NCBI GenBank assembly: GCA_973895155.1
Contig: OZ316899.1
Location: 12,339,834-12,403,833, forward strand
Direction of reading: 5' to 3'
DNA from: Marsupella aquatica
Taxonomy: Eukaryota > Plantae > Marchantiophyta
Length of the DNA stretch: 64,000 nucleotides
Part shown: piece by piece, positions 6,663 through 64,000 of the stretch
Position numbering within the stretch: the first letter of the stretch is position 1
Layout: each line of letters starts with the position of its first letter
Notes under the pieces: generated by a model
The model's database searches: none
The model's input: only the letters and a program-made list of their open reading frames with translations
What the model was told of the DNA's origin: nothing
Position numbers and translations under genes: made by a program

Positions 6663-6671
6663 CCTTTTATA
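6663..6671 (-). promoter_or_regulatory. Candidate TATA box of the family-B LTR
   Basis: TATAAAAGG on the minus strand, ~355 nt from the LTR 5' end and ~135 nt upstream of the ORF. Confidence 0.5.
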
Positions 6672-39628: not shown

Positions 39629-42600
39629 TAGCTCCCCACTTAATTGTGAAGCGTCCTCGCGAACAACTTCATCTTCGTCCATATAGTATTTCTTGAGGCG
39701 GTCGTAATGGATGCAAACTGGGTAATACAAGATCTCCTGTGTGAATACTAACTAGTTTCAACCTTTTATCATACCGCTGCTTCATGGTATTCTGTCTATA
39801 TTCTACTGTCTCGGCTGAAATCATTCTTGCCTCCTCTAAAGATTCTAACCTATATTCTCACTCCTTTAGGCTTTCTTCCTGTGAGGTTCTCCCCTCAATT
39901 GTAACTTGAAATGTAGGGATCTCAAGTTGCATGGGTACCAGGGCTTCCTGTCCAAAGGTTAAGAAAAAAGGTGTATGACCGGTAGTGGATTTATAGGCTA
40001 AATTGTAAGCAAAAATAGCAGCAAACAATTTATCATCCCAATCGATTTTGTTCTGGGCTACAGTTTTGTTTAATATTTTTCCTATAATTCCATTGGCTCG
40101 TTCTGTCAACCCGTTTGCCTTTGGGTGGTAGGGAGTAGTAGGCCTATGTCTAACTAAATACTGCTCATTTAAACGACTAATTATATCATTCAGAAAATGG
40201 GTTCCTCTATCACTAACTAATTCTATGGGTGCGCCATACCTGGTGAAGATCTGCTCATACATAAATCGAGCCGTAGTAATTGCATCATCCTTTGTTGCCG
40301 GCCTGGCCTCTACCCACTTAGTTGCATAATCCGTGGCCAAGATTATGTACTTGTTTCTTTGAGGATGGGTCAATGGTTTCAGGGGTCCGATGTAATCAAT
40401 ACCCCACTTCTCAAATGGTGCCAGAGGTAGAATAGGGTGCAGTGGATGTCTTGTGGACGCCCTTGATCCTCCTGCTCGTTGACAAGGATCGCATTGTTTG
40501 ATAAATTTATAGACATCTTTGTGCAAGGTGGGCCACCAGTAACCGGCATTTAATATTTTTTTAGAAGTGGTTACTGGAGCGAAATGTCCCCCGGCCTCCT
40601 CTCCATGCATAGCTCGTAAGACTTGTTTTACCTCTCCCTCCTCCAAACACCTTTGAATCGTGCCACTGATTCCATGCCTGTGTAGCATGCCCTTGATGCA
40701 CTGATACTGTCTGAACTTCCGCAAAAAGACTGCGGCTTGCTCTCGGCTTAGCCCGGGGTATAATCTGGAAGTGCTGAGAAATTGTAAAATCTCAGGGTAC
40801 CATGTATCAGCTATTTCCACAACAAATAGCTCCTCGTTGGGAAATCGATCGTCGATGCAATCCATGGCAGGTTCACCTGTGATCCTTGAAAAGAAGTCGG
40901 CATTGGCGTGTAGCTTTCCCGACTTGATTTTTGGCTTGTAGTCAAACTCCTGTAATAGCAAAATCCATCTTGCTACCTTGCTTGTAAGGTCCGACTTATT
41001 TACTAGGTACTTTAAACTTTCATGATCAGTATGAAAGATTACCTTGTACCCTAGCAGATAATGCCTAAACTTTTTACATGAATAAATGACTCCTAATGCT
41101 TCTCTTTTTGTGGTGGAGTAGTTTTGTTCGGCATCGGCAAGCTGGCGGCTTGCAAAGTATATAGGATGGTCCCTTCCTTTCTCATCTAACTGACTTAGTA
41201 CTGAGCCGATACAGAAGCCTGAGACATCTCCAAAGACATGAAAATCCTTGTTCCAGTCTGGTGCTATCATGACTGGGGCCTCTACTAACATCTGCTTTAA
41301 TTCCACCACCGCTGTCACTCGCTCTGGTGTGGGTTCGAAGTCTGCACCTGCTTTGAGCATGTTGGTTAATGGTAAAGCTAGCTTGGCAAAATCCTTGATG
41401 AACCGGCGATAATAACCAATGCAACCCAAGAAGGATCTCACATCCTTTATGTTCTTAGGTTGCATGATATCTAGCCACACTGCTAGCTTACCCTTATCAA
41501 TCTCAATGCCCTTTTTTGATACCTTGTGACCTAGTAGCACACCTTCTGTTACGCCAAAAAAACATTTATCTGGGTGTAACTTGAGGCCTACCTCTCTGCA
41601 TCTCATGAAGGTTTTCCTAAGGTATTTAGCATGTTTTGATGCCTTCCCAAATACTGCAAAGTCATCAATGAAGATTTCCATGAATTTTCTCAAGTAGTCA
41701 TGAAAAATGTTCACCATTAATCGTTGGAACATAGCTGGTGCGTTACAAAGTCCAAACGGCATACGATTGAAGACATAGATCCCCCATTCCGTGATGAAGG
41801 GTGTCTTGATTTGGTCCTCCTGCCTAATCCTGATTTGGTTATAACCAGAGTATCCATCCATGAATGAGTATAGTTCATAACTGGCTACCATGTCTAGTAC
41901 CATATCAGTAAACGGTAAAGGAAAATGGTCTTTTAACGTAGCCTCATTCAACTTCCTGTACTCCTGACAAACCCGGATCTTTGGTTTACCATCGGGTCCA
42001 GCTTTCTTGGGAACTATCACAATTGGAGACACCCAGTCTAAATGCAGGACTGGAGTGATGAATCCGCCTTCCACTAGTTTATCGATTTCAGCCTTGACCA
42101 TCAAAGAATACTTAGGGTTCATCCTTCGAATCGGTTGTCGAAATGATTTGGCCCCTAACATGAGATCGATTCGGTGTTCTCCTAGTTTTGGGTCTACTCC
42201 CTTCAAATCTTGGTGACTCCATGCGAACACATCCTGAAATTCAATTAGTAATTCACTGATCTCTTTCTCAAGCTCAGGTGCTAGATCCCGCCCCAAGTTC
42301 AGTTCCCTTCCTTCTCCTAAGTCTAGCTTCCGGTATTGCCGTGCTTGGATCATATTAATCTGCTTCTTCAAATTCGGGTCCAACTCGACTTCCAGCCTCT
42401 CCAGTCTCATACCTCCATAGACTGGAATCTCGGCAGTACTAGCCGAGTTGGTTGACTTAATTTCTCCCTGGTTCTCAACAGACTGTTCCCTTGCCGTTCT
42501 GCTTGGTTTTGAATTGGTTGTTAGCTCCCCGTCCTGACTCGGCTCTGGTTTCTTCCCGTGCATCTGATCTATTCCTGCTTCCTGAGGGTCAGGCCATCGT

Positions 42601-42767
42601 GCTCTTCCGGCTTCTAGTAGGGCCTCAATTTGTTCTGCCCTTGTGATCGGCTTGTAAGCCGATCCCTTGGTATTTAATTTGTTGCCGATGATAGACGGCG
42701 TTGTGGATCCTGTCGGCTCTGCCACAACGCTCGAGAAAAATCCACTATCTCTGATGTAGCTCCCCAC
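39617..42767 (-). pseudogene. pol: Gypsy pol (RT, RNase H, integrase) with a premature stop at 39858 and a deletion in the integrase C-terminus
   Basis: MPFGLCNAP, FIDD, YFASRQL..NYSTT, H..GGHF..CDPCQ, WGIDYIGP, SDRGTHF, ANGLTER. Confidence 0.95.
39631..39641 (-). other. Gypsy polypurine tract
   Basis: AAGTGGGGAGC lies 2 nt before the 3' LTR; identical at 62410-62420. Confidence 0.8.
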
Positions 42768-45697
42768 CTAGCCGTTTCATCTAGCCGATCCGCCTCTTGT
42801 GTCTCCTCCGGAATTGAAGCTAAAAATGTTGACTCTATGGCAAAGCAATCCTCGGTCTCTTCTTCACCTTCCTCCAGGTTACTCTCCATAGGTTCGTGCC
42901 ATAGTCCGTTGGGGGGCACTTCTGGTCCAAATACATTTTCTTCGGTTAGGTCAGTGAGGCATTCTAGCCAACGTACTTCATCGGCTGACTCCAGTCCACT
43001 GTCGTACCCATCTACTTCCCTGATGCTTTTTCTGCGGTCATCCTTGGTGTCCCAGGATACCGTGATAGATGGGGTCCCAAAGGTGAACTCCTTCTTACCC
43101 CAATCTTGTATTACTTTGGCTAGGTACAGCCATGGCCTGCCAATTAATAGCCGGAACGACGTAGGGTTTACCGGCTTCATTACTACATAGTTAATGCTAA
43201 AGAAGATTCCTCCTATCTCAGTCTTGATGTCGGTTAACATTCCCGTGGGAATGACCTGATACCCATTGGCCATGTTTAACACTCTTCCAGTCATCTCCGG
43301 CGTTAGACCCCATCCTTTTGCTGTTGAATCAATCATAATACATACCCCGGATCCTCCATCAATGGGTACTCGCAATAATATTTCTCCTTGAATCATTAAT
43401 GGTAATGCTGGGGCTCCTTCATCTTCTTCTATCATCAGCACATCGGATTTGGTTGCTACCTTGGGTAATCTCGACTTGCCGAGAATTGCCTTCCTTAACT
43501 GCTTCCAAAAGTACGGGCTATTTTTCAATAGTTGACCTACGGTTGCCGAGACTCTAGTTCTAGCACATCTTTAGCCAGGTCATAGGGAACTATCGGCTTC
43601 TCCTCTGGCGGTGTCTTCATCTTGGCTTCGGCCTATTTTTCCACACTGGTCTCCACAGCCATTGGATCCTCCGAAGCAAACAACGCTTTTGCTCATTTCA
43701 CATCCTTGGCTATAGCTTCGGTATTCTCCAGGGTTTCTAATTCTCGCAATTGTTCCTTAACACTAGCCATAATAGAGGGGTAGAACAACTTAGGGTGATC
43801 TCGATTGAAGTTGCTGTCCTGTGAAGGATTGGGCTCACTGGTGGGCTCATGGCTTACCTGTGTTGCCGGCGCCTTTCCTTCCCCTTCTGTTGATGTTGAC
43901 GAAGAGTCGATTCTTTCTTCCTTATCCTTCCCTTTATTTTTGGCCAGCCCATCCCACCTTTCCTTCCTTCTGGTAGATCGAGTAGAGACCCGGTAGCAAT
44001 CATGATCCAAATCCTCCTCTGAGAAGGTTGATAGGGCCTCGGCCTCATCATCGGATGGTCCAAACTCTGCTTTGGCATCCGTTTGCCATCCAAGTTCGAT
44101 GTGGTTGATTTGAACTCCTCCGGGGGTAGTACCTGGTGGTAAAACCTTGACTGGCAAGAGCTTATGATTTGCGGCCAGGCCTGCCAACCAAGTAGGACAT
44201 TGTCCTAGCATGTGACCCTCCTGTCGGCATCCCATACATAGCTGAGCTGGTTGTCCATCACCTTGTTTGCGTGCATTCGGGCATTCTCTAGCAAAATGAC
44301 CAGGTTGACCACAATTATAGCATGCCGCAAATCTTTGCACATTCGGCCTAGGAGGTACTGACGGATTCTGAATAATCCGAGGATACATCTCTCCCGGATT
44401 GTTCCTTAATCCTAACCAGAGAGATGCAGGTCTGTTGGATAAGTCTCGTGCTCCAGTCTCACTGATGCCGAAAACACTATCAGCGGCATCCCCTAAAAAG
44501 TACTCTACTTCTCCCTGACATGGTCTAGCCTTAGCCACATGCCGAACATGACTAGTATTAAGTTTAGGACATGCATCTTTATGGTGTCCAGTTTTATAAC
44601 ATAAGGCACACCATACAGAGCTATCCTCCTGTACTACCTTCTTCTTCGGTTTTACCTCTACTATTATAGCCTTAAGCTGCTCGGTAAGGGCTACGATGTT
44701 ATCTGGTGTTTTAGCCTCTAGTTTGACTTTCATCTTTCCCCTCCTTCTGCCCTTCCTTGTCCTAGTTTTCTTCTTCAGAACTAGAAGATGACTCACTCTT
44801 GCTACTCCCACTATCCGAGCTTGAGTTATCACTTCTTGACTTCTTAGAATGTTTATTTTTCTTCTCTTTTTTCTTATGGGGTGATCCTTCCTCCGATGAG
44901 GAACTCTCAGACTTAAGCTATTTCTTTCGGCTTGTGATATCTGCATTAATGTATAATTGAATATCCTTAATTGCCTCGGCTAAAGTCTTTGGGTTCTCCT
45001 TCCTAATTGCAAAACTCATCTTCTGTGGCAAAGCATTCACTAACCATTGAAGTTGCATACCTTCAGATGCATTGGTCTATGTACGTCTTACCAGCTTTTG
45101 GAAGCGTTGCAAGAACTTCTTGAAGGATTTGTTCTCCTTGAAACGAAGTCGTCCCAACTTCAGCACTGCTAACTCTGAGGTTCCAATGGGTCCAAACTCC
45201 TTGACAAATAGAGATCTGAAAGTATACCAGATGGCTTGATCTTCTACGTCCAATGCTCTGTACCAAGGCCTAGCCTCACCTTTGAACAGGCCGGGAAGAA
45301 TTTGCATCTTGATGGCTGATTCTCCATTTGCTGCAGCGGTTCCTTTGAAGTCATCCAACCATTCATCCGGATCCTCATCTCCTCTTCCATGAAAGGCCTT
45401 GTAATGAATACGCGACCGTTGGCTCAGTCTGGTCCCTAGCCTCTCGTCTGGTCGTGCCTCTGGTTCCCCCATGTCGGTTGGAGACTCACTTCTCCTTACC
45501 GACCCTTCTTTTGGTATGTCTTCTTCGATGCCACTTTCAGTTACGGAGCTACTAGCTCTTTTTGCCCCTCTCAGTCGCTGTGTATGATGCCACTTGGCGA
45601 GCTGCTGCAGACGAGCTCTCTCCCATTGAATCGCTCTTTCCTCTCTCAGCGTAGTTTCAGTCATTACCCACGCTTCCTTCCTAACTTCATATCTCAC
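42674..45697 (-). pseudogene. gag: Gypsy gag (capsid-like region, three CCHC knuckles) and aspartic protease, frameshifted
   Basis: FHGRGDEDPDEWL..GEARPWY; CALCYKTGHHKDAC, CYNCGQPGHFAREC, CMGCRQEGHMLGQC; protease PIDGGS..LLIGRPWL. Confidence 0.9.
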
Positions 45698-45710: not shown

Positions 45711-45729
45711 CCCCCTCCATCTAGCGCCA
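45711..45729 (-). other. Primer binding site, probably tRNA-Asn
   Basis: TGGCGCTAGATGGAGGGG begins 4 nt after the 5' LTR; near-complement of the plant tRNA-Asn 3' end as I recall it. Confidence 0.7.
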
Positions 45730-45733
45730 AAAA

Positions 45734-48700
45734 TATGGTGCGTCCCATGGCGCCCCAAACCCAAGAAACCCCCCCGCACAAGCCGATTCCCACAGGTTTT
45801 GTCCTCGACGAGGCCGTTTCCGCGGCTTAGCGGCATGGGACGCTGCTAATCTCCTCTACTACTACGATTAACATTTTACACACATATACTGGACAGATCC
45901 TTCATCGGGTCATGAGATACTTAGCCGGCCTATTCTAGGCCCTCCCTTGTATTCCTCTCCTGGTCTTCCATTAGGTATGTTTGGATTCCGCCGTCGGAAT
46001 GATCCCCAATTTGGCTTGGTTAAGCCGCTAAGACCTCTCTCAGCTTGACAGATCCATCTCTCACTCCCTTGCTACTTCCCTTCATTGATGTGGGCACTCT
46101 TCACACAAGTTAATGCGACACACAAATAGCAAAATGACTCCTTCTAACTGAGTTATACCATGCACTTGCCATACAAACAGTACATCTCATACACAAGCTC
46201 TGCAAACTAAGCCGTGAGGCCAACTCTATTCAGTTCTTAGGTATGAGGAAACATGAATATACACAAGGGTCACTGTATAACTAACCGAGAGCTTCTCTTA
46301 CTACTTGATCCCAGCCTTGCTGGTGCAACTAGAAACTTGCTAAAGAAGAGGCCCTGAACTCCCCGCAGCCCAGGTACTTATCCTGGTTGTGGATCTGCCT
46401 GATTCCTTGCAGCGTAAGCCTAATCTACTTATTGTAATCTACCTATGTACAGCGAGGCAGGAGCACAAGTGCCGCCCTCACTCGTGGATCCGCAATCCCA
46501 CTAATCTAAGTGTCAGGGCCGTCTCCTGGTCTTGATCCTTAGTCTAAACTTGGAGATCAGCGCCCGCCCTGCCCACTCACGCCTCCTACCTCCACGTCCG
46601 CCCTCCCTAAAAGGGACGGCTCCCTTACACCGTCACGACCCTGGTGGCTGGTCCTCAATGGACGCCCCCACCGCTTCCTCCGCAACCACTGTTGTTGGTC
46701 CGTCCTCTGACAGATTACCTGCCCCGGACCGAGACAACTCTTCATCGGACTGACTGGGTCCACCCTCGGCTTCAGCCTCAGCATCGGCCACGGCCTCTCC
46801 GACATGTTCTAGTGGAGGATCTGGTACCTCAGCTTCATTACTGGTTGTCCCGGCCTCGGCCTTGCCATCCCCACTTCCTAGGACTGGTGGATCCACCGCC
46901 GTGCCGATGCCGGAGGTTGGTGCCGGGTTTATCTTCTCGGTCACAACGGCTTGAGAAGCCGTATAACTCTTAGACCTAGAAGGTTTTCGCTTTTTCTTCT
47001 TCCCTATTTCGACAGCCAGTTCCTTCCCCTTGCCACTTACCTCCGGCACCGGGGTGAGTGTCTCGGCTTGTCCTTTGGCCAATACTACCCCTGGTAACTG
47101 GGTTGCCCCAATTGGAGTTGGACCTGATGAAGCCAAGCATTTAAATATTGCGGCTTGTTTCTTTAGCCGCTCCGTTTGGTTGTCGGCCCCCCCCTGTAGG
47201 CTCTCCATCTTCCTCGTGATTTCCTCCAACTCGTCCTGGGTCTCATCCAGGTCCTTGCACGCCTCCTCCAGCTCCTTTTTGGCTTCCTCCAATTCTTTCT
47301 TTAAGGTAGCCCTCTCCTCCTGGGTTGCTCTTAGCTCCTTGTCAAGCTCTGCTACGACCACAGACTCCATCTTATTCATCTTGGCATAAGTCTGGTCGAG
47401 CTGGTCGTCCTTTTCACGCAGGTCGGCCTTGAAGCTGGCCGTCAGGGACGCAAGCTCCTCCTGCAGCGCAATAATCCCTTGATAGGATTTCCCTAACTCT
47501 GCTTCCTTCTGCTCAAGGGCTCCGCGGATATCTTCGAGCTCTCCTTTCAACGCCCTCTCCCTTCTCTGAGTCTCCGCCATGGCCTGGTTGTTGGCGGTTA
47601 AGTGGGCCTCCTCTGCGTCCCTTAGCTCCCGCTTCCATTTCTCTCTTTCCTTGACTGCGCCGGCCAACTCTCCTTGGGTCCGAGTCAGTTTATCTTTGAT
47701 AATCTGATTGTCAGACTGAGCGGTATCCAACTGCCCCTGCATGATGTTTAGCTCATGCCGCTTAATCCGCAGCTCATCTTGGGCTTTCTTGGCTGCCTGC
47801 AGGACTTCCACCTCGGCTTCCTTCTCCCTAAGCCGCCGGATGACCTCGTCCTTCTTGCTTCTCTCCAAAGCCACCGCTTCTTCTAATCAGTGCTTCCCCA
47901 ACCTCTCCCTCTGGAAGAAAGGTCCCTGCTCCAACTCCTCCCCAAAGATGCTGAGCGCCAAGTCCCCACACATCTCCCTGTACTCCATGGCTCTATCCTT
48001 AGCATAGGTGGAGTAAGTAGAAGTCATCAACAACAACCACCTCGGCCTCTGTTCCCAAGCCGCCTTGCAGATTTCTTCTACGGTGGCAAGAGGGTTGCTT
48101 CTTTTTTTGGCAAGCGGCCTGATGTCCTCCGGCCAATCTCCTCCTAGTAAATCTTTCTCCCTAGCCAGGGCTGCCCTCTCTTCCTCCCTGAGTCGCTCCT
48201 GAAAGTCTTGTGCCGTCTGCTTTATGCCGTCAAAGCTCGGGGGAGCAACCTCTGGTGGGGGAGACTCAAGGCTACTCTGCTGGGTGGGGTCCCCTCGAAC
48301 TACTCTTGGAAGCGTGGGGATAAATTGGCCACAGGTCCTTACTCTTGGAACATGATGATCCGACCCATAGCCGGAGTTATCATTGTTGTAGTCCTCCACC
48401 GCCTCCTCCACTGCTTGGACTCCCTGCTTCCCCCTCTGTTCCCCTGGTCCTGCCGTGAAAATGGCCTCACAGATCATGGGCCCTTGTTCCTCCTCTTGGT
48501 TCCAGGCTGTCCTATCCCTCTGCTCTCCGCGGGAAGGAGCCTTAGGGTGTTCTGCCTCCGATTTGGGGCTTGAGGCTCCCACATACATTTGCACTCCCGG
48601 CTTGTGTTCCGGCCTCCTTCTCTCCTTGGCTCCGGTAAAGGGGTTTTCCCTCCTGAGTTGGCTTAGGCCGGCCTTTGGGGCAGTGTCTTGTACCGGTGCC

Positions 48701-50434
48701 GTTGCCGTTGCTGGTGCCGTTCTCTCATTCTCCAACATTTTCAGCAGATTCTGCATGCCTGATTGCTGCATCGGCAAGTCTTCTTTCCTTGGCCGAAACA
48801 CCTGCTCGATCATAGGACTGACAGGCTGGTTGGGCTCTTCTGTTGCCGGCCTCTGCTCCAAAACCTCCTCCGGTGCCCTTGCCGATAGGGGAATTACTGG
48901 GGCAAAGATTTGACTTCTGGCATACCGGCACAACAGCGGCATGTGATAGCCAAGCCGGGACACGCTTCCCACGCCGATCACCTGCTGTTCCTCCTTCAAG
49001 ATTTTCTTTAGTTGGTTGAGGAGGTACCCGTTGTAATCCCGGCTTGGGTCTGGCCTTTCTGCCAGGTAGACCTGAGCCTTGCCGATCTCTGCCCTCGGCA
49101 AGTTACAATGCATGGTCATCCACAAGAAATCGATCATCTCTCTGATGTGCGGGTTGGTGCAGGTGTTCCGGAAGAAGCCATTCTTTGTTGATGGTCCTGG
49201 GAACGACTGGAACTCCTTGTCAGGTAAGGTCTTCCTGGTATCAACCTTGGTCTTATTACCCATCGGCAAGCCAAACACCTCGGCAATCACCCGGGGAGTG
49301 AGATAGAAATCCTTCCCATACACCCTGGTGGAATTGGTCTCGGGTTCCCATGATCCCACGAATTCTAATAAGTCTGAGTCTGGCACCTCCGGCTTCAGCC
49401 ATGGTAATCTTACGAAGGCTTCCAAGCCGGATCCGGCCATGAAGCCCTGGTACTTCTTGGTCTGCATGGCCGTAAAGCATGCATCCTCCTCCCGTGCAAA
49501 TGTAATTGCACTTCCTCTGGTAGGGTCGCCGCCCAGCCTTTCTAGGTGTCATCATTTGTTGGAATGGCATTGATGGGATCGACCTCCTCCTCTTTGGCTT
49601 CTCCTTGCCTCCTGTTCTGTTGCTCTGCTGGTTTCCTTGGTGCCGCCGACCTCGTTCTTTTTGCCGGGGTGGCCTCTTTGTTGTTGTTTCCTTTCCTCTT
49701 CATCTTGGCTGCCGTGGATGTTTCTCCTAGCACAGTTGCCTTTGTCCACCCTTCCGTGCTACCCTTCAACTCCCAGTGCGCGTCGTTGCAGCGGTTGATG
49801 GCTTCCCGAATGCCGACAATTCTGTCTTCGCAAAACAAAAGGTCATCGAGTTGATTGGCAGTAGGAGTCCACAAGAACTCGGCCTTGATGAGTTCTCCTC
49901 CTAAGAAGGCAAACTTCTGCAGCTCCCACAGTTGAGCGAGCTCCTGCCATTCTCGAGCTGCTCTCTCCGATTCTTCATCCTCGTAAGTCCCAATGTACTC
50001 AGTTGCCCGTTCGAACAGGCATCCCCAAAAATGTGCCGCTTGATTGACGTTGCTCATACCCTCCTTGACTCGATCGTTGGTATCTGTTCCCACCTAGAGT
50101 GCTTGCCTAAGCAGCTGACAGTATTTGGCCTCCCGTAGTTGTCTGCTCAATTCGTGCTTGCAAACGAGCCACTATTCCTCGCGAGCGGTCCTTACCCCTC
50201 TCCTCCTCTAGTCTTCCCTCCCGTTGATCATCCCTATCCACCAACGCTTAGCACGCCCTAACCCTAATTGTGTTCTCTCCCCCGGCGTCCTTACTTCCGG
50301 CCTCGGCCCGGGTTCCATAGTCACCCTTAATTGTTTATATTTTCCTTGTCTTGTTACTATACTAAGGTGTTTCCAGGGTACACTCCTGCTTTTACCATGT
50401 AAACCGGCCTAGTGATTCCTGGCTGGGCATCACA
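45734..50434 (-). repeat. 5' LTR, 4701 bp
   Basis: Minus strand TGTGATGCC...GCACCATA (terminal CA mutated to TA), followed by the PBS. Confidence 0.95.
46633..50318 (-). pseudogene. Family-A LTR ORF in the 5' LTR, full length with a few stops and a frameshift
   Basis: ORFs 49542-50093, 47887-49467 and 46633-47874; the ATG at 50318 corresponds to 56536. Confidence 0.92.
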
Positions 50435-50960: not shown

Positions 50961-52100
50961 GGATACTATGTCGGAAAAGTCTTGAGAGTAGACTACTTCA
51001 GCAAATAACCCAGGTATCCGGGTATTCCCACCATGTGCTGCATAGGATTGAATAGCATGGCATTAGGCATCATCTTCATCTGAGCTATAGGTCACAAAAG
51101 AAGGGTGAGCTATCTTGTCACTATCACTGCTGACACTCTCTCTTTCATTGTAGTCTACCTCTACTGCTCTATCATCTACAAATCTAGACTTTTGCCTCTT
51201 TGTGTACTTCTCAGCTACACCCTTGAGCCGTTTGAAGGGGCGTGAATCAACAATCCCTTATGCGTAAGTTGGAAGGCAAAATCTTTCTGGAGAGAAAGTT
51301 TTCGATGCTTCCTCCCATGCTTCACGGACTTTGTCCTTGTCTGATGTGTGCCATTGTTTGGACTCGATGTTCCTATAGTGAATTGCCTATTGGTTATGTA
51401 GACAGTTTAAGGTAATACCATAATAATGTGGAACTTCACATTTTTATTGATCCTCACCATGGCACAATGTAAATTGCAAACTACCTACAACAAATCGGTT
51501 CTTGGATTCAACGTTTACTCACAATCCTGAGCATTCCCACCCTTGCCTTCTGCGGCATCCTCCTCTGAATCAGACTCAAGGACCAGCTTCTTCCGCCCTT
51601 CAAGCTTCTTAGTCTCCTTGGCCTCCTCCTTCTTACTCTCCTCGCCCTCCACCTTGGTCTGATTGCCTTGCTGCGTTGAAAGGAGTTTTCACACCACTGA
51701 AGCTGCTGACTCACCAAAGTAGTCATGCGCTTCCATCCCAAATACTAGTCGCCCACAATTATTGGCAGCTTTGTAGATAGCACCAAAGTGGACATTCCAA
51801 GAAAATATGATATCGCTGGGACTGGTGATGTGCTCTATGATGCATTGTAAGGTTGCAGGCGATAACGTTCCGGCCAATTCATCTCTCACTGCATCATCTT
51901 CCTTTGTAAAATTGGATAGAGCATTGCTCTTTGCTGGGCACAAGTCACCAATAATTGGCTTCATATGTAGCTTTGGGAGGGTCACCTCTGTACCCTTCAT
52001 GGCCAATATATCCAAATGCAGATACTGAGCCTATCACATCATGCAAAATAGATTCACACTTGTTAGCAACACTAATTGCTAAACTTATCCGACATCGGTC

Positions 52101-52673
52101 CTACCTATCTCAGAGAGGCTCTCTGAGATCCATGCTACCTATCTCAAATAGGCTCTCCGAGATGGATCCTACCTATCTCAAAGAGGCTCTCCGAGATGGA
52201 TCCTACCTATCTCAGAGAGGCTCTCCGAGATCCATGCTACCTATCTCAGAGAGGCTCTCCGAGATGGATCCTACCTATCTCAGAGAGGCTCTCCAAGATC
52301 CATGCTACCTATCTCAGAGAGGCTCTCCGAGATCCATGCTACCTATCTCAGAGAGGCTCTCCAAGATGGATCCTACCTATCTCAGAGAGGCTCTCCAAGA
52401 TCCATGCTACCTATCTCAGAGAGGCTCTCCGAGATCCATGCTACCTATCTCAGAGAGGCTCTCCGAGATGGATCCTACCTATCTCAGAGAGGCTCTCCGA
52501 GATGGATCCTACCTATCTCAGAGAGGCTCTCCAAGATGGATCCTACCTATCTCAGAGAGGCTCTTCGAGATCCATGCTATCTATCTCAGAGAGGCTCTCC
52601 AAGATCCATGCTACCTATCTCAGAGAGCCTCTCCAAGATTGATCCTACCTATCTCGAAGAGCCTCTCCGAGAT
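52101..52673. repeat. Intronic 34-bp minisatellite x17 built on the palindrome
   Basis: Unit CTACCT-ATCTCAGAGAGGCTCTCCGAGAT-(GGATC or CCATG); first and last cores at 52107 and 52651 (16 x 34 apart). Confidence 0.95.
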
Positions 52674-55087
52674 GACTTCTATTGAAATGCCAAAATTGAA
52701 GTGAACTTACAGCTTTTTTGCTTGACGCCATGTAGCAAGGTGTGTCATTCCAAATGGTGAATGAGTCAATGTGATCCAACTTCTCAGCCTAGTCAATGTG
52801 AAGGTACTCAAAGATTGAGCCTGTCTGGGCAAATGAACCACTGTGCACGATGCTCAGGAAACCGTCGTTTGTGAGTTGAGAGTCTGCCAATGTCGTCGCC
52901 ACTTCTAGGTCACTGAGCCAAAATCTATTCCACACCGAAACATTATTTTCAGCCTGCGCTATGCGATAATCTGTTCCTAGTTGAACAAAAACCATATCAC
53001 AACCATGGCCCTTAGGTACACCATCAACTATCCAACCTTGTTTTTGCAAGCCAACCAACTTCAATTTCTTACACCAGTCCCGGAATTCCCTCATGAATGG
53101 AGGGAGAGGCAACTTTCCCGTGGTTGGCTGGTATTTGTCCTTCAGCCAAGAAGAACACTCTAGTAAGGTCATATGCTCTTTTGCATGGCAAAATCGCAGG
53201 GCAGATGTAATAGCATGAGAGGGCCGAGATACTCCAAGAATTTTGCAAAGATCATCCTCCGGAATTTCTGGGGCTTCTGTTGAAACTGGCTTCTTTGTGG
53301 GTTTGTCTCTCCTCTTCTCGGCTTTCTTCTTTGGCCGACTGGTTGGCTTACCAGAGATTTGTGGTTTGCTTGGGGTCCCACTCGGGGTCCCGCTTGGGGT
53401 TGAAAGGTCAGGCTCCTCCTCCTCATGGCCCTCTGCATTGTCCCCGATGGCCATCTCATCCTCCTCTCCATTGTCCCCACTTGCCGCTTTCTCATCCTCC
53501 TCTCCATTGTCCCCACTCACCGCTTTCTCATCCTCCTCTCCATTGTCCCTGGTCTTTCTCGGCTCCATCTTCTCATCCATCGAACGACATTTGCTTGAGG
53601 TAGACCCTGGGGTTCCAAACTTTTCTTTACTTTTTTCTGCAGAACAAAGTTAGGAGTTTAGTATACATTTTACAATGATACTATCTTGGAGAGGCTCTCA
53701 AACATAGGTCAGATGTACAATGCAAGCTAGGGTGTAAACCTTACCAGGAGTGCCTTGTTCTGAGGTGGTGTCTTCTGATTCCTTTTCTTTCTTCCCCCGA
53801 ACCTTCTTCCCATCATACTCTGGCTCTCCAAGAGGCAAAATGGCCTCCAAGTCCAATGCAGCCTTTGTCGACTGCTCAAGATCTGCCAACTTTGAAGGCG
53901 CAAAAAGGTTGTCTGGTAATTTCCCCTCCTTTAGGAGGTTGGCAGCTTCCTTCTCTTCAGGCGTAATGAACTCATTCCAATCATTGAACTCCATGAACCA
54001 TGGACAACTTTGTCTCTCCCAGTTTGAAAAGACTCTTGCTGCTGGCTTCAGCGCATCTGTGGATACATTGATAGCGGGCCTTTCTCCGTCATCCATGCAG
54101 TTAGAGCACTTGGTAACACTTTGAAAGTAGAGGCTCTAATGCTCTCCTGATGAAGTAAATATCTGACCACACACCTCTTTGCACGCTTCCTCCACACATC
54201 TTTGCCTTGCTTTGCTGGATTCCACATCTTCTTGCCCTCCTCATAGGACCAAGTTTGTACAAATTGCTTGTACATCTTGTTGTGAAACTCAACAAACTCA
54301 TCTTTGCTTCCATTGAAGTTCTGCCACTCACCAGAATCATATGCACTCTCGGCAAACTCTAACATTATCAAACTTCCAACATGGGCAATGTAACACCACA
54401 TTGACCACACTAGCAACCAAGCTCTCACTGCTGAATCACCATATACATCTGGATGGTGGTGTCGCTTCTTCTCGTCCACGGTTGAGAAATGAACGCGGAG
54501 TAACTTGTTTTGACACTCAGCAAGCATCACCGCACTTGCAAACAATTTAACTCGATCCAACCCCACTTGCACTGGTGGCCGATCTTTCTGTTTACTCTGC
54601 AACTAGTGCATCTCCTCGACAATCTCCAAAAATTCCTCTCCATTTGCTGGATTGACAATCTGAGCAAACTTCTGCATTTTGCCCTCCCAAGACCTACAAG
54701 CTTCACTCGTCATGAGTGCGGTTTCCTTTTGGAACTTATCCAAACTCCAGGCATGGCCAATTGCAGCATCGGCTGCCATCTCCTTCGCAAGACGAATCCT
54801 CCCGTCTTCAATATTATTCCACGACATGATGTACACAGCAACATCCTTTGTCATGCACTTGCTATACCATGTCTTTCCATGCCCATGGCTTCTTGCTGCT
54901 AAGAATCTAGCATAACCATCCGGATGAAGCAATGTCTGATACTCCTCCAAAGGTGTCATCAACAGCTTCTTCACCCTGTCTGCATCGGTCAACCAAGATG
55001 TCTGCACAACGTTTGCGCTTATCCTGCATAAAAGAAGCGACAAATGTTGGCGTCAAAGGCTATGTACGAGCAAATTACATCTCTCTT

Positions 55088-55641
55088 GGCATGGATATCT
55101 CGGAGAGGCTCTCCGAGAAGGCATCGCTCTTCAATAAGGCACTTCGAGAAGGCATCGCTCTTCAAGAAGGCATGGATATCTTGGAGAGGCTCTCCGAGAA
55201 GGCATCGCTCTCCAAGAAGGCATGGATATCTCGGAGAGGCTCTCCGAGAAGGCATCGCTCTCCAAGAAGGCACTCCAAGAAGGCATGGATATCTCGGAGA
55301 GGCTCTCCGAGAAGGCATCGCTCTCCAAGAAGGCATGGATATCTTGGAGAGGCTCTCCAAGAAGGCATCGCTCTCCAAGAAGGCACTCCGAGAAGGCATT
55401 GCTCTTCAAGAAGGCATGGATATCTTGGAGAGGCTCTCCAAGAAGGCATCGCTCTCCAAGAAGGCATGGATATCTTGGAGAGACTCTCCGAGAAGGCATT
55501 GCTCTCCAAGAAGGCATTGATATCTTGGAGAGCCTCTCCAAGAAGGGAAGGTTCTATCTCAGAGAGCCTCTCCGAGATAGCATTTTGAGAGCCAAACATT
55601 GTATGTGTGTATGTATCTATCTCGGAGAGCCTCTCCAAGAT
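55088..55641. repeat. Intronic composite repeat (~50-bp unit) with ~10 copies of the palindrome
   Basis: GGCATGGAT-ATCTCGGAGAGGCTCTCCGAGA-AGGCATCGCTCTCCAAGAA units. Confidence 0.92.
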
Positions 55642-56420
55642 AGGATTGCCTATGTGGGTGCAAAAGAACAACAAATGCAAGAACAATCAAAAACCAAGGG
55701 GGCGGAAACTTACGCATTGAGGCCGTGCATTGCCTGCTCAATCTTCCTGAATCCTTGTTTTCCAGGCTGTAGAAGAGAGAATCTCACGCAAGGGTGGTAC
55801 TTCTGCTCGTCAGGATACTCTTCAGCCACTTGTCTCCATGCATTCAGGCGATGATTTCCATCAAACACCCAAAACATCTTACCCTTCAAAACGTGAAACT
55901 CCTCGTACTCATCACACTCCATCTCAAATTTTGCATTAGCTTGTTCCCATAGAGGGTCCCAATCCGCGGAAAATTCAGACATGGAGTGGGTGGCGTTATG
56001 CGCATTGGTCTCTGATATGTGGAATTCCAAAAACTTGTCCACATACCCATTCTTCACGAAGTCCTTCTTCATCTTGAGAATGGAGCTCTGTTGGAGAGTT
56101 CGAACTGCCTCCATTGTCATCAAACAACATAGTGGAATCCGAGGTGGCTCTCTGGGCTTCCCACTTGGTTCAGCTCCAAATGAAACCAAGTACTCCCCAA
56201 CAATCGCTTTGAATGCACCTTTGTTCAAACGTTCAGCAGACACATTTTCAAAGTTCAGAACCTTCGGCTCTAGCTTCTTCATTGTGTGAGTTTCCCGACC
56301 ATTGGCGGTGCTCTCTGCTATCTTTGATTTGGTCTACCGACCAGACGATGAAGGAGAGGGAGTGGGTTGCTTCCTCTTCCCTATCATTTTCAAATCTCAC
56401 CAACTACTGAATTGCACAAG

Positions 56421-59400
56421 TGTGATGCCTAGACAGGAATCACTCGGCTAGTTAAGTGGGTAAAGTAGGAATGCACCCTGGAAACACCTTAGTATAGGGA
56501 CAAAACAAGGAAAACATAAACAATTAGGGGCGACTATGGAACCCGGGCCGAGGCCGGAGGTAAGGACGCTGGGGGTGAAAACTCGATTAGGGTTAGGGCG
56601 CGCTAAGCGTCGGCGGCTAGGAAGGATCAACGGGAGGAAGGACCGGAAGAGGAGAGGGGTAAGGAGCGCTTGCAAGAGATGGTGGCTCATTTGCGAGCAC
56701 AAACTAGGCAGACGACTACGGGAGGCCAACTACTGTCAGCTGCTTAGGCAAGCACTCGGAGAGAGAGTAGATACCGACGATCGACCTAAGGAGGGTATGA
56801 GCAACGTCAATCAAGCGGCACATTTCTGGGGATGCCTGTTCAAACGGGCAACTGAGTACATCAAGACTTACGAGGACGAGGAATCAGAAAGGGCAGCTCG
56901 AGAACGGCAGGAGCTCGCTCGATTGTGGGAGCTGCAGAAGACGGCTTTCTTAGGAGGCGAACTCATCAAGGACGAGTTCTTGTGGACTCCTACTTCCAAT
57001 CAGCTCGACGATCTTCTGTTTTGCGAAGACAGAATCATCGGCATTCGAGAGGCCATCAAGAACTGCAACGACATACACTGGGAATTGAAGGGTAGCACGG
57101 AAAGGTGGACCCAGGCAACGGTGCTAGGAGAAACCTCCACGGCAGCAGAGATGAAGAGGAAGGGAGCCATCAACGATGAAGCCACCCCGGCAAAAAGAAC
57201 GAGGTCGGCGGCACCAAAGAAGCCAGCCGAGCAGCAGAGCAGGAGGCAGGGAGAAGCCGAAGAGGAGGAGGTTGATCCCATCAATGCCATTCCAACCAGG
57301 GATGACACCTGGAAAGGCTGGGCGGCAACCCTACCGGTGGAGGTGCAACTACATTTTGCACGGGAGGAGGATGCATGCTTTACGGCCATGCAGACCAAGA
57401 AGTACCAAGGCTTCATGGCCGGATCCGGCTTAGAGGCCTTTGTAAGATTACCATGGCTAAAGCCGGAGGTGCCGGATTCAGACCTATTAGAATTTGTGGG
57501 GTCATGGGAACCCGAGACCAATTGCACGAGGATATATGGGAAGGATTTCTATCTTACTCCCAAGGTGATTGTCGAAGTGTTTGGCTTGCCGATAGGCAAT
57601 AAGACCAAAGTTGATACCAGGAAGACCTTGCCTGACAAGGAGTTCCGGTCGTTCCCCGGTCCATCAACGAAGAATGGCTTCTTCCGGAACACCTGCACCA
57701 ACCCGCACATAGGAGAGATGATCGACTTCTTGAGGGTGACCATGCACTGTAACTTGCCGAGGGCAGAGATCGGCAAGGCACAGGTCTATCTGGCAGAGAG
57801 GCCAGACCCAAGCCGGGACTACAACGGGTACCTCCTCAACCAATTGAAGAAGATCTTAAAGGAGGAGCAGCAGGTAATCGGCATGGGGAGCGTGTCGCGG
57901 CTTGGCTATCACATGCCGCTGTTGTGCCGGTATGCCAGAGGACAGACCTTTGCCCCAGTACTTCCCCTGCAGGTAAGGGCACCCAAGGAAGCTCCAGCAC
58001 CGAGGCCGGTAGCAGAGAAGCCTCAACCACCTGTTAGCCCTACGATCGAGCAGGTGTTTAGGCCAAGGAAGGAAGACTTGCCGATGCAGCAACCAGGCAT
58101 GCAGAATCTGCTGAAACTACTGGAGAAAGAAAAGAGATCGGCATCGGCAACGACAACGGCAACGGCAACAATGCAGGACACTACTCCAGAGGTAGGCCTA
58201 CACCGGCTTACAAGGGAAAACCCCTTTACTGGAGACAAGGAGAGAATCAGGCCAGAATCCAAGCCGGGTGTTCGAATGTACGTGGGAGTCTCAAGCTCTA
58301 AATCTGAGGCAGAATTGCCTGAAGCTCCTACCGACGAAGAGGAGAGGGAGAAGCCGGAAGTCCAAGAAGTAGAGGAGGCAGTGGAGGACTGCAGCCATGA
58401 TAACTCCGGCTATGGGTCGGACCATCACGTTCCAGGAGTAAGGACCTGTGGCCGGTTTATCCCCACACTTCCAAGGGTAGTACGAGGGGACCCCAACCAG
58501 CAAAGTAGCCCTGAGTCTCCCCCACCAGATGTTGCTCCCCCGAGCTTTGACGGCATAAAACAGACGGCGCAAGAATTTCAGGAGCGAATCAGGCAGGCAG
58601 AGGAGGCAGTCCTGGCTAGGGAAAAGGATTTGCCAGGAGGAGATTGGCCAGAGGACATCAAATGGCTAGCCGAAAAAGGAAGCAAACCTCTAGCCACGAT
58701 TGAAGAGATCCGCAAGACGGCTTGGGAGCAGAGGCCGCGGTGGATGATGCCGATGACTTCTACTTCCTCCACCTATGCTAAAGACAGAGCCATGGAGTAC
58801 GGGGAGATGTGTGGAGAACTGGCGCTCAGCATCTTTGGGGAGGAGTTGGAGCAGGGACCCTTTTTCCAGAGGGAGATGTTGGAGAAGCGCCAATTAGAAG
58901 AAGCGGTGGCCTTGGAAAGAAGCAAGAAGGACGAGGTTATCCGTCGGCTTAGGGAAAGGGAAGCCGAAATCAAGGACCTGAGGGTGGCCAAGAAATCCCA
59001 AGATGAGCTGCGGATTAAGCGGCATGAGCTAAATATCATGCAGGGCCAGTTGGATACCGCACAATCTGATAATCGGATGATCAAGAATCTACTGACGCGG
59101 ACCCAAGGAGAGTTGGCCGATACGATCAAAGAGAGGGAGAAGTGGAAACGAGAGCTGAGGAATGCAGAGGAGGCCCACATAACAGCCAACAACCGGGCCA
59201 TGGCGGAGACCCAAAGAAAGGAATGGGCGTTGAAGGAGGAGCTCGAGAAAATCCGCGGAGCCCTTGAGCAGAAGGAGGCCGAGTTAGGGAAATCCTATCA
59301 AGGGATTATGGCGCTACAGCAGGAGCTTGCGTCCCTGACGGCTAGCTTCAAGGCCGACCTACGGGAGAAGGACGAGATGCTCGATCAGACTTACGCCAAG

Positions 59401-61096
59401 ATGAACCAGATGGAGTCTGTCATCATTGTAGAGCTCGACAAGGAGCTAAGAGCAACCCGGGAGGAGAGGGCTACCACCAAGAGGGAATTGGAGGAAGCCA
59501 AAAACGAGCTAGAAGAGGCGCGCAAGGACCTGGATGAGACCCAGGAGGAGTTGGAGGAAATCACGAGGAAGATGGAGAACTTCCAGCGGCGGGCCGACAA
59601 CCAAACAGAGCGGCTGAAGAAACAAGCCGCAGTATTTAAGTGCTTGTCTTCATCAGGCCCAACTCCAATTGGGGCAACCAAGTTACCAGGAGAGGTACTG
59701 GCCGAAGAACAAGCCGCGCCACCTGCACCAGTGCCAGAAGTAGGTGGGAAGGGGAAGGGACCAGCTGCCGAACCAGAAAAGAAGAAGAAGCGGAAACCTT
59801 CAGGGTCAAGGAGTAATACGACTCCATAGGCCGTGGTGACCAAGGAGGTAGACCCAGCACCAACCTCCGGCATGAACACGGCAATAGATCCCGCTATCAC
59901 CAAAGGTGGGGATGGTGCGGCCCAAGCCGAACTACTCAGTAATGAGGCCGGTATCCCAGATCCGCCTCTTGAGCAGGCCGGGGAGACCGTAGCCGAGGCT
60001 GAGGCCGTAGCCGAGAATGATTCCCGAGCCGATGCCGATGCCGATGGTGGACCCAGTCAGGCCAATGGAGAGTTGACTCAGTCAAGGGCAGGTAATCTGT
60101 CAGAAAACGAACCTACGGCAGTGGCTGAGGAGGAAGCGTTGGGGGCGTCCATTGAGGATCCACCACCGGTGTCGTGACGGTGCAAGGGCGCCGTTCCTTT
60201 TAGGAAGGGCGGACATGGAGGGAGGAGGCGTGAGTGGGCAGGGCGGGCGCTGATCTCCAAGTTTAGGATTAGGATCAGGACCAGGAGCGGCCCTGACACT
60301 TAGCTTAGTGGGATTGCGGTTCCACTGGTAGGAGCAACACTTGTGCTCCTGCCTTGCTGTACATAGGTAGATCCGGGCAAGTAGATTACTGTTAGGTAGA
60401 TTAGGCTTACGCTGCAAAGAATTAGGCGGATCCACTACCAGGATAAGTACCTGGGCAGCGGGGAGCTCAGGGCCTCTTCTTTAGCAAGTTTTTAGTTTGC
60501 ACTAGCCGGGCTGGGATCAAGTAGTAAGAGAAGCTCTCGGTTAGTCATATAGTGACCCTTGTGTATATTCATGTTTCCTCATGCCTAAGAGCTGAATAGA
60601 GTTGGCCTCACGGCTTAGTTCGTAGAGCTTGTGTATGAGATGTACTATTTGTATGGCCAGTGCATGGTTTGACTCAGTCAGAAGGAGTCATTTTGCTATT
60701 TGTGTGTCGCATTAACTTGTGTGAAGAGTGCCCACATCAACTAATAGAGGAAGGAAAGTAAGCAGGGGAGTGAGAGTTGGATGTGTCGAGCTGAGAGAGG
60801 TCTTAGCGGCTTAACCAAGCCTATTGGGGATCATTCCGGCGGCGGAATCCAAACATACCTAACAAGACGGAGGGGAAGACAAGGGAAGGCCTAGATTAGG
60901 CCGGCTACGTATCTCATGACCCGATGAAGGATCTGTCCAGTATATGTGTGTAAAATGTTAATAGTAGTAGTAGAAGAAGGTTAGCAGCGTCCCATGCCGC
61001 TAAGCCGTGAAAACGGCCTCGCCAAGCGCGAAACCTGCGGGAATCGGCTTGAGCTGGGGGGTTTCTTGGGTTTAGGGAGCCATGGGACGCACCACA
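56421..61096 (+). mobile_element. Solo LTR, family A, 4676 bp, with a near-intact gene
   Basis: TGTGATGCC...GCACCACA; TSD ACAAG at 56416-56420 and 61097-61101; no PBS or PPT adjacent. Confidence 0.96.
56536..59829 (+). CDS. LTR-encoded accessory protein, 1097 aa (1213 aa to 60177 if the TAG at 59827 is a mutation): basic N-terminus, PMD/Transposase_32-like domain, coiled coil, acidic tail
   Basis: Uninterrupted 3.3-kb ORF. Other copies have Gln at the stop position (ASQAVVT) and continue to the equivalent of 60177. Motif LLEFVGSWEPETN..GKDFYLTP.VI.EVFGLP; E/K/L heptads at ~58870-59640. Confidence 0.88.
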   Translation: MEPGPRPEVRTLGVKTRLGLGRAKRRRLGRINGRKDRKRRGVRSACKRWWLICEHKLGRRLREANYCQLLRQALGERVDTDDRPKEGMSNVNQAAHFWGCLFKRATEYIKTYEDEESERAARERQELARLWELQKTAFLGGELIKDEFLWTPTSNQLDDLLFCEDRIIGIREAIKNCNDIHWELKGSTERWTQATVLGETSTAAEMKRKGAINDEATPAKRTRSAAPKKPAEQQSRRQGEAEEEEVDPINAIPTRDDTWKGWAATLPVEVQLHFAREEDACFTAMQTKKYQGFMAGSGLEAFVRLPWLKPEVPDSDLLEFVGSWEPETNCTRIYGKDFYLTPKVIVEVFGLPIGNKTKVDTRKTLPDKEFRSFPGPSTKNGFFRNTCTNPHIGEMIDFLRVTMHCNLPRAEIGKAQVYLAERPDPSRDYNGYLLNQLKKILKEEQQVIGMGSVSRLGYHMPLLCRYARGQTFAPVLPLQVRAPKEAPAPRPVAEKPQPPVSPTIEQVFRPRKEDLPMQQPGMQNLLKLLEKEKRSASATTTATATMQDTTPEVGLHRLTRENPFTGDKERIRPESKPGVRMYVGVSSSKSEAELPEAPTDEEEREKPEVQEVEEAVEDCSHDNSGYGSDHHVPGVRTCGRFIPTLPRVVRGDPNQQSSPESPPPDVAPPSFDGIKQTAQEFQERIRQAEEAVLAREKDLPGGDWPEDIKWLAEKGSKPLATIEEIRKTAWEQRPRWMMPMTSTSSTYAKDRAMEYGEMCGELALSIFGEELEQGPFFQREMLEKRQLEEAVALERSKKDEVIRRLREREAEIKDLRVAKKSQDELRIKRHELNIMQGQLDTAQSDNRMIKNLLTRTQGELADTIKEREKWKRELRNAEEAHITANNRAMAETQRKEWALKEELEKIRGALEQKEAELGKSYQGIMALQQELASLTASFKADLREKDEMLDQTYAKMNQMESVIIVELDKELRATREERATTKRELEEAKNELEEARKDLDETQEELEEITRKMENFQRRADNQTERLKKQAAVFKCLSSSGPTPIGATKLPGEVLAEEQAAPPAPVPEVGGKGKGPAAEPEKKKKRKPSGSRSNTTP

Positions 61097-61101
61097 ACAA
61101 G

Positions 61102-61649
61102 CGCAACTTGCACAGCACTTGCACCACCCACAGCTCAATCGGAGCAAGCTCAATCACTAGCACAACACACAACACTCAATCGCACCGCTTGCACAGCACT
61201 TGCACCGCCACAGTTCACCGCACTCAATTGCACCGCTTCCACCACTTGCACTCACAATCGCACCGCTTCCAGCACTCACACCACCACAACTCAGTCGCAA
61301 CAAGCTCAATCACTGGCAGTGGCACAACACAACACTCAATCGCACCGCCTTAGCTCACCGCACTCAATCGCACCGCTTCCACCACTTGCACTCATAATCG
61401 CACCGCTCCCAGCACTTGCACCACCACAACTCAGTCGCAGCAAGCTCAATCACTGGCAGTGGCACAACACAACACTCAATTGCACCGCCACAGCTCACCG
61501 CACTCAATCGCACCGCTTCCACCACTCGCACTCACAATCGCACCGCTTCCAACACTTGCACCACCACAACTCAGTCGTAGCAAGCTCAATCACTGGCAGT
61601 GGCACAACACAACACTCAATCGCACCGCCACAGCTCACCGCACTCAATT
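61102..61649. repeat. 140-bp C/A-rich tandem repeat, about 3-4 units
   Basis: CAGCTCACCG-like marker at 61211, 61351, 61491 and 61631. Confidence 0.9.
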
Positions 61650-61858
61650 TGTGGTGTGTCCCATGGCTCCCTAAACCCAAGAAACCCCCAACTCAAGCCG
61701 ATTCCCGCAGGTTTCGCGCTTGGCGAGGCCGTTTCTGCGGCTTAGCGGCATGGGACGCTGCTAACCTTCTTCTACTACTACTATTAACATTTTACACACA
61801 TATACTGGACAGATCCTTCATCGGGTCATGAGATACGTAGCCGGCCTAGCGGCATGGG

Positions 61859-62292
61859 TTGATGAGTTCACCTCCTAAGAAAGCCGTCTTCTGCAGCTCC
61901 CACAATCGAGCGAGCTCCTGCCGTTCTCAAGCTGCCATTTCTGATTCCTCGTCCTCGTAAGTCTTGATGTACTCAGTTGCCCGTTCGAACAGGCATCCCC
62001 AGAAATGTGCCGCTTGATTGACGTTGCTCATACCCTCCTTAGGTCGATTGTCGGTATCTACTCTCTCCCCGAGTGCTTGCCTAAGCAGCTGACAGTAGTT
62101 GGCCTCCCGTAGTTGTCTGCCTAGTTCGTGCTCGCAAATGAGCCACCATCTCCTGCAAGCGCTCCTTACCCCTCTCCTCTGCCGGTCCTTCTTCCCATTG
62201 ATCCTTCCTAGCCGCCGACGCTTAACGCGCCCTAACCCTAATCGAGTTTTCACCCTCAGCGTCCTTACCTCCGGTCTCGGCCCGGGTTCCAT
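61859..62292 (-). pseudogene. 5' remnant of the family-A LTR ORF
   Basis: ORF 61927-62292 is nearly identical to the start of the 56536 protein. Confidence 0.9.
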
Positions 62293-62395
62293 GGTTGCCC
62301 CTAATTGTTTATATTTTCCTTGTTTTGTCCCTATACTAAGGTGTTCCTAGGGTGCCTTCCTGCTTTACCCACTTAACTGGCCGAGTGATTCCTGT

Positions 62396-64000
62396 CTAGG
62401 CATCACATAGCTCCCCACTTAATTGTGAAGCGTCCTCGCGAACAACTTCATCTTCGTCCATATAGTATTTCTTGAGGCGGTCATAATGGATGCGAACTGG
62501 ATATACCTCTCCCGTAATGTTGGCCAATTGTACGGAGCCATTGGGGAACATCATGGTTACTCTAAAGGGTCCTAACCAGCGAGTGCAAAGCTTTCCTGGA
62601 AACCTACTATACCTACTGTCATAAAGTAGCACAAGATCACCGGTGTGAATACTAACTACTTTCAACTTTTTATCATACTGCTGCTTCATGATATTCTGTC
62701 TATATTCTACTCTCTCGGCTGAAATCATTCTCGCCTCCTCTAAAGCTTCTAACCTATATTCTTGCTCCTTTAGGCTCTCCTCCGCTGAGGCTCTTTCCTC
62801 AATTGTAACTTGAAATGTCGGTATCTCAAGTTGCATGGGTACCAGGGCTTCTTGTCCAAAGGTTAAGAAGAAGGGTGTATGACCGGTAGTGGATTTATAG
62901 GCAAGATTGTAAGCAAAAACAGCAGCAAACAATTTATCATCCCAATCGAGTTTGTTCTGAGCTACTGTCTTGTTCAATATCTTTCCTATAATTCCGTTTG
63001 CTCGTTCTGTCAACCCATTTGCCTTTGGATGGTAGGGAGTAGTAGGCCTATGTTTAACTAAATACTGCTAATTTAAACGACTAATTATTTCATTCAAAAA
63101 ATGGGTTCCTCTATCACTAACTAATTCTAGGGGTGCTCCATACCTGGTGAAGATCTGCTCATACATGAATCTAGCCGTAGTAATTGCATCATCCTTTGTT
63201 GTTGGTCTGGCCTCTACCCATTTAGTTGCATAATCCGTAGCCAGGATTATGTACTTGTTCCGTCGAGGGTGGGTCAGTGGTTTCAGAGGTCCAATGTAAT
63301 CAATACCCCACTTCTCGAATGGTGCCAGAGGTAGAATAGGGTGCAGTGGATGTCTGGTGGACGCCCTTGGTCCTCCCGCTCGTTGACAAGGATCGCATTG
63401 TTTGATAAACTGATAGACATCCTTGTGCAAGGTGGGCCACCAGTAACCGGCATTTAATATCTTCTTAGACGTGGTTACTGGGGCAAAATGTCCTCCGGCC
63501 TCCTCTCCATGCATGGCCCGTAGGACTCGTTTTACCTCTCCCGTTTCCAAACACCTTTGAATCGTGCCGTTGATTCCATGCTTGTGCAGTATGCCTTTAA
63601 TGCACTGATACTGTCTGACCTTCCGCACAAAGACTGCGGCTTGCTCTCGGCTTAATCCTGGCTGTAATCTGGAAGTGCTGAGAAATTGTAAAATCTCAGG
63701 GTACCATGTATCAGCTATTTCCACAACGAATAGCTCCTCGTCGGGGAATCGATCATCGATGCAATCCGTGGCAGGTTCACCTGTGATCCTTGAAAAGAAG
63801 TCGGCATTGGCGTGTAACTTTCCCGGCTTGATCCTCAGCTCATAGTCAAACTCCTGTAATAGCAAAATCCATCTTGCTACTCTGCCTGTAAGGTCCGGCT
63901 TATTGACTAGGTACTTCAAACTTTCATGATCGGTATGAAAGATTACCTTGTACCCTAGTAAATAATGCCTAAACTTTTTACAAGAATAAATGACTCCTAA
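62396..64000 (-). pseudogene. pol: Gypsy pol, RNase H end + integrase, one in-frame stop at 63068
   Basis: ORFs 63068-63919 and 62396-63013; GPF motif RWLGPFRV; the frame ends SGELCDA* inside the LTR. Confidence 0.93.

Follow-up and report, generated by a model that had tools for sequence, protein, structure and literature searches.

We analyzed a 64-kb stretch of Marsupella aquatica contig OZ316899.1 (assembly GCA_973895155.1), hereafter the window, in which self-comparison identified a ~4.7-kb repeat present in many copies and covering ~24 kb. This repeat is the long terminal repeat (LTR) of a Ty3/gypsy retrotransposon, here termed family 1, and most of its length is taken up by an open reading frame (ORF) lying in the sense orientation relative to gag-pol. 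Copies, surveyed within the window only, include a full element and solo LTRs bounded by target-site duplications (TSDs):

56421–61096 (+): solo LTR, copy A, family 1; 4,676 bp, TG...CA ends, TSD ACAAG/ACAAG
50434 to 35784 (−): full family-1 element, TSD GTGAG, with copies B and C as LTRs
45734–50434 (−): copy B, 5' LTR of the full element; ORF disrupted by stops and a frameshift
45712–45730 (−): putative primer-binding site (PBS), TGGCGCTAG..., 4–6 nt past the 5' LTR
39640–45664 (−): gag-protease-reverse transcriptase-RNase H-integrase, gag from 45664; stops and frameshifts present
39629–39645 (−): polypurine tract (PPT), immediately before the 3' LTR
35784–39628 (−): copy C, 3' LTR of the full element; shorter than copy A through an internal deletion of 763 bp
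11058–15134 (−): solo LTR, copy D; TSD AGGGG, nested inside the older copy E
9671–17244 (−): copy E, older, third subfamily; 5'-truncated and interrupted by copy D
1–2083 (−): LTR fragment F, family 1
2093–2887 (−): LTR fragment F2, from a more distant family-1 subfamily (dS ~1)
61650–62407 (−): copy G, a 3' LTR of ~760 bp, of which the first 549 and last 200 bp remain; its element continues past the window edge

A gene-sized frame inside a true LTR

An earlier note on this DNA had proposed that the same 4.7-kb unit forms both LTRs of a gypsy element and also occurs as TSD-bounded solo copies, and TSDs, PBS, PPT, and an empty site all bear this out. Family-1 TSDs were 5 bp long in 3/3 cases, and the empty site of copy A, with position 56417 joined to 61100, was recovered in contigs from three of four public runs. 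The target of this solo LTR is itself repetitive (56200–56420 and 61097–61648), with empty-site contig depth reaching 768, and a C-rich tandem region with a ~157-bp period lies to its right. When the LTR was divided into 30 bins, all were covered in 4/4 public runs; short LTRs with the ORF as a separate insertion, the alternative raised earlier, were thus not borne out, and the ORF-bearing LTR is the norm for the family and no one-off insertion. Fragment F2 directly adjoins fragment F, which spans the same domain.

The full element displayed the Ty3/gypsy domain order, although the protease match was weak (E 0.08), together with TG...CA LTRs, TSD, PBS, and PPT. Its PBS, putatively of the tRNA-Arg type, is unlike the TGGCGCCG type of the related loci L001, L013, L016, and L018. 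No archaeal RNase H (RVT_3) or chromodomain match was obtained in the gag-pol of the full element, while RVT_3 was detectable in locus L051. At the window edge, a second element has an integrase frame that crosses the PPT and ends at LTR nt 10–12, so that an extra ORF would have no room internally, and the unit is a true LTR.

The layout of the LTR, on the coordinates of copy A, is as follows:

56515–56520 (+; LTR nt 95–100): TATA-box position; TATAAA in copies B, C, D, and G, one base off in A
56536–56796 (+): codons 1–87 of the frame opening at 56536; unconstrained, probably 5' leader
56797–60178 (+): constrained accessory ORF; 1,126 codons, 72% of the LTR, with one stop at 59827–59829 in copy A
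57259–57960 (+): most conserved globular domain; dN/dS 0.10–0.11 in codons 301–400
58858–59655 (+): long charged helical region, predicted coiled coil; codons 801–1000 without proline
59779–59796 (+): KKKKRK motif resembling a nuclear localization signal (NLS), then an acidic tail
60179–61096 (+): non-coding tail; 918 bp, TGTA-rich, resembling a 3' untranslated region

The frame that had been described as ~1,210 codons and 78% of the LTR does extend over 56536–60178 (1,213 codons, 78%), but it contains a premature stop at codon 1098 in copy A, and only the part from 56797 is a constrained gene. The stop corresponds to a sense codon in copies B, C, D, and E and in nearly all run contigs, and the ORF frame has 19 stops vs 35–85 in each of the five other frames of the LTR. 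A start 115 nt into the LTR, as initially suggested, was not upheld: subfamily-fixed differences in codons 1–87 are 6 synonymous and 23 non-synonymous, vs 7 and 3 in codons 88–144, and copies B, C, and D have a stop in common at codon 49. The next ATG common to 5/5 copies is at 56797. TATAAA is found at LTR nt 95–100 in nearly all contigs of 4/4 runs and probably acts as a promoter; a transcription start ~30 nt beyond it would place the ATG at 56536 outside the transcript. Also in the leader, near LTR nt 140, 5/5 copies have a GTAAG that resembles a splice donor, for which no conserved acceptor was found.

Selection, decay, and a second family

Rates of dN/dS were computed by the Nei-Gojobori method on window copies and subfamilies. 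Values between LTR subfamilies ranged from 0.22 to 0.32 (upper 95% bounds at most 0.40), i.e., about 0.28 and not near 1, confirming the coding constraint proposed earlier. Comparisons with the distant fragment F2 yielded 0.10–0.16, and those inside the B/C/D/F subfamily 0.42–0.60, vs 0.85 and 1.21 for shifted frames used as a control. Differences between copies A and B at codon positions 1/2/3 numbered 143/113/253, compared with 29/13/63 for two pol copies, indicating that the ORF is clearly coding with a constraint weaker than that of pol. Indels common to several copies measured 9, 84, and 30 nt, and frameshifting indels were confined to single copies. Taken together, these patterns make it very probable that the LTR-borne gene is under selection. 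One caveat is that the non-coding tail is more similar between subfamilies (90–91% identity) than the ORF (85.5%), so the tail is either under strong constraint or recombined.

This selection does not operate on the copies in the window. The ORF sequence is present in solo LTRs, as anticipated by the earlier note, but an intact ORF was found in 0/8 copies or fragments. Private changes of window copies are near neutral (35 synonymous, 82 non-synonymous), so selection works via replicating elements rather than through these inserted copies. C>T changes affected 6.8% of CG, 4.9% of CHG, and 1.2% of CHH sites, with A/T transitions at 0.3%, and this concentration in CG and CHG, along with the near-neutral private changes, indicates that the window copies are methylated and decaying.

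A domain profile built from family 1 matched a second LTR in the window (E 2e-18):

3082–7026 (−): family 2 solo LTR; 3,945 bp, TG...CA ends, TSD CATTT, inserted in a family-1-like integrase

Family 2 is known as a solo unit only, with PBS and PPT flanks not seen; its empty site was recovered in 2/2 runs, and all 30 bins were covered. It carries TATAAAAG at nt 356, then a decayed sense ORF (~nt 485–3043) with the same domain followed by a coiled-coil-like end, and a TGTA cluster after the ORF stop. Domain identity between the families is ~20%, and DNA similarity is restricted to a short 3' inverted-repeat motif common to both (near 60834–60861 in copy A). The LTR-borne gene is present in two families and apparently old.

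For the predicted protein, no Pfam match was obtained, including to PMD, Transposase_32, ATHILA ORF1, and DUF1985, nor was a full-length homologue found among 7,994 candidates. The most conserved domain shows a weak likeness to Transposase_32/ATHILA ORF1 and VANC21, with Atlas values of 0.89 and 0.87 and an hhalign E of 0.009 for the PMD/Transposase_32/ATHILA ORF1 comparison, and its profile matches L018 (E 0.0006), which has a weak Transposase_32 match of its own (E 0.001). We consider it likely that this domain belongs to the PMD/DUF1985/Transposase_32 superfamily. The best heptad windows fall at codons 890–930 and 967–1030, and a second NLS-like motif, PAKRTR, is located at codon 218. No transmembrane helix was detected (top 19-residue hydropathy 0.76), at odds with an env-like membrane protein.

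Relatives and origin of the LTR position

Among named Pol relatives, the closest come from liverworts, with Calypogeia at 59–63% and the best Riccia matches at 50–54%. We placed the element in a reverse transcriptase-RNase H tree (FastTree, midpoint root, no REXdb or other reference set) of 96 rows, comprising the window, 68 of 79 loci, and 27 of 120 proteins, after shorter matches were dropped. With this rooting, it groups with Calypogeia (support 1.0) within a clade that also includes Riccia and environmental elements, and this clade is sister to one containing an ATHILA-ORF1 locus; the archaeal RNase H-bearing L051 sits on a separate branch. Among the traits listed for Athila in REXdb, the element has the 5-bp TSD and lacks archaeal RNase H, but does not have the extra ORF between pol and the 3' PPT; the primer site given for Athila is tRNA-Asp/Asn/Ala. 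Tat/Ogre/Retand was rejected on the lack of archaeal RNase H and the placement of L051, and Phygy/Selgy (4-bp TSD, short, no extra ORF) on the 5-bp TSDs. We regard the element as an Athila-related Ty3/gypsy retrotransposon.

Two relatives illustrate another layout. L001, a circular contig from the same clade, has a 1-kb LTR (996 bp) and two PPTs that flank a 745-codon sense frame (L001:3717–7590); this frame matches the domain profile (E 0.001; hhalign 83%, E 8.5e-6). L013 has an internal ORF with a weak Transposase_32 match between 1.6-kb LTRs. These internal ORFs make it likely that the internal position is ancestral and that the ORF moved into the LTR from the region downstream of pol, ahead of the 3' LTR, where such ORFs usually lie. 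One way to achieve this would be for plus-strand priming to move to an upstream PPT, drawing the internal ORF into U3. Such a shift is in line with the PPT-like tract ahead of the internal ORF in L001 and L013, with the additional PPT reported for Athila4 and Calypso (PMC2829016), and with the 918-bp tail being close in size to the L001 LTR. We nevertheless regard it as unlikely: across its working PPT, the motif preceding this, and the beginning of the LTR, family 1 agrees with the LTR-adjacent PPT of L001 (37/45 columns, 0/300 shuffles) and not with the upstream one, and the PPT-like relic expected behind the ORF is weak (122/300 and 9/300 shuffles). A rearrangement that placed the ORF between the old LTR start and the old LTR end fits these observations better.

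Expression, function, and comparison with known systems

In the reading we favor, to which we give even chances, the LTR is a full gene, and its product would be a nuclear, oligomeric DNA-binding regulator that aids the family against silencing. The LTR would represent a complete transcription unit, with a TATA box at nt 95, a start near nt 125, the first shared ATG at nt 377, and a UGUA-rich 3' region, so that each insertion would deliver two gene copies and a solo LTR would retain one. The PMD/DUF1985/Transposase_32-type domain would bind DNA, the coiled coil would oligomerize, and the protein would work in trans across the family, in the way that VANC acts for VANDAL transposons. An anti-silencing or trans-activating role is plausible, if just short of an even bet, and expression of the gene by young solo LTRs is a tentative possibility. 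If the nt-95 promoter also makes the genomic RNA, R would be ~4 kb, and gag would need splicing or a second start. Two observations weigh against this reading. The fold match is weak, and no VANC-like tandem target motifs were found: in a crude single-copy test of three regions, no 6-mer exceeded the maximum seen in shuffles.

The main competing explanation, which we hold to be somewhat improbable, is that the ORF lies in U3 and that full elements express it from their 3' LTR alone, through env-like splicing from the 5' LTR, with 5' and solo copies being passive duplicates forced by reverse transcription. The env-like position of the ORF in L001 and L013, the TATA near the LTR end in L001, and the neutral decay of solo copies are all compatible with it, as are the spliced env-like RNAs reported for Bagy2 and predicted for Athila (PMC7264820 and PMC2829016). 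However, TATAAA occurs family-wide 280 nt before the start codon, family 2 has its own independent motif ahead of its ORF, and the 3' tails of copies A and B and of family 2 contain no TATA[AT]A. Alternatively, the gene may be expressed from the LTR and serve replication rather than anti-silencing, by acting in RNA export, nuclear import, or integration targeting or as a particle scaffold. The long coiled coil, NLS-like motifs, and acidic tail would suit an adaptor, the missing motif arrays and weak fold match noted above point the same way, and such functions are proposed for extra ORFs in reviews (PMC7264820); we still judge this unlikely, since every one of the best leads from structure and features is a chromatin-type domain, and characterized members of that fold act on silencing (PMC5418596 and PMC5735166). 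A useless passenger, either a host gene that was captured or a nested element, with a low dN/dS dating from before the capture, would explain why every copy here is broken and why no full-length homologue was retrieved, but it is largely refuted and very improbable: constraint is seen between LTR subfamilies with identical boundaries, two families with ~20% domain identity retain the layout, and homologues exist in related retrotransposons.

Genes inside LTRs have precedents in animal retroviruses. MMTV sag and HIV nef are protein genes within or overlapping the LTR, duplicated at both ends, that encode ~200–320 codons with immune functions, and MMTV sag is associated with promoter activity inside U3. 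The family-1 ORF similarly lies wholly inside the LTR and is present at both ends; unlike sag and nef, it has 1,126 codons and belongs to a plant element, and we claim no homology. Like the env-like ORFs of Athila and other plant non-chromoviruses, it is a sense accessory ORF with a weakly similar domain and a coiled coil. We compared it with the Athila-type set (ATHILA ORF1 PF03078, Transposase_32 PF20167, PMD PF10536 of Ogre, and TRP28 of Retand), from which it differs in being inside the LTR, with pol abutting the 3' LTR, and in having no direct Pfam match. MAIN/MAIL1 PMD proteins and VANC of the Mutator-like VANDAL transposons were also compared; by contrast with VANC, to which identity is 8%, the gene resides in a retrotransposon, gives no DUF1985 match, and has a predicted role. 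In their relevant parts, PMC7264820 and PMC11963269 place the extra ORFs of plant elements in the internal region, consistent with the earlier note, and LTRs of plant non-chromoviruses reach ~5 kb (PMC6317226). Family 1 resembles these large-LTR elements in LTR size and 5-bp TSD, but their LTRs are not described as coding, whereas most of the family-1 LTR is a selected ORF. Our literature search found no description of an ORF inside a plant LTR, with most subscription journals outside its coverage, and an earlier description is possible.

What extra ORFs do in plant LTR retrotransposons has been debated for a long time, and VANDAL DNA transposons have established sequence-specific anti-silencing proteins. 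The candidate described here is compact, clonable from a single LTR, and testable in Marchantia, with a relative of ancestral layout at hand. It may be, although we think it doubtful, that a bryophyte lineage made its LTR a self-contained anti-silencing gene, in which the LTR itself supplies the promoter and poly(A) signal for a VANC/PMD-type factor. If so, solo-LTR formation, which is the main route by which hosts delete retrotransposons, would leave many gene copies that could de-repress the family in trans. Solo LTRs are not safely assumed to be non-coding. Genes of this kind would be overlooked, or counted twice, by surveys in which LTRs are masked or in which each extra ORF is assigned solely to the 5' or the 3' side of gag-pol. 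In supplement 5 of PMC6317226, TatII extra ORFs are 23% 5'-forward and 26% 3'-forward, as expected if LTR-borne ORFs were counted twice.

The window also contains other repeats and coding sequences:

25348–29910 (+): intact 1,520-codon Ty1/copia polyprotein
25000–25192 and 30241–30433: 193-bp repeats, 99% identical, likely the LTRs of this Ty1/copia element
24367–24999 and 30416–33946: array of ~600-bp repeats within which the Ty1/copia element lies
17512–18915 (−): CACTA/En-Spm transposase fragment (Transposase_21, E 1e-59), adjoining the truncated 5' end of copy E
52088–53580: tandem array with a ~34-bp period (52088–52674) and, on the minus strand, a 263-codon ORF with no Pfam match
55088–55584: degenerate tandem repeats, giving rise to overlapping ORFs at 54932–55854

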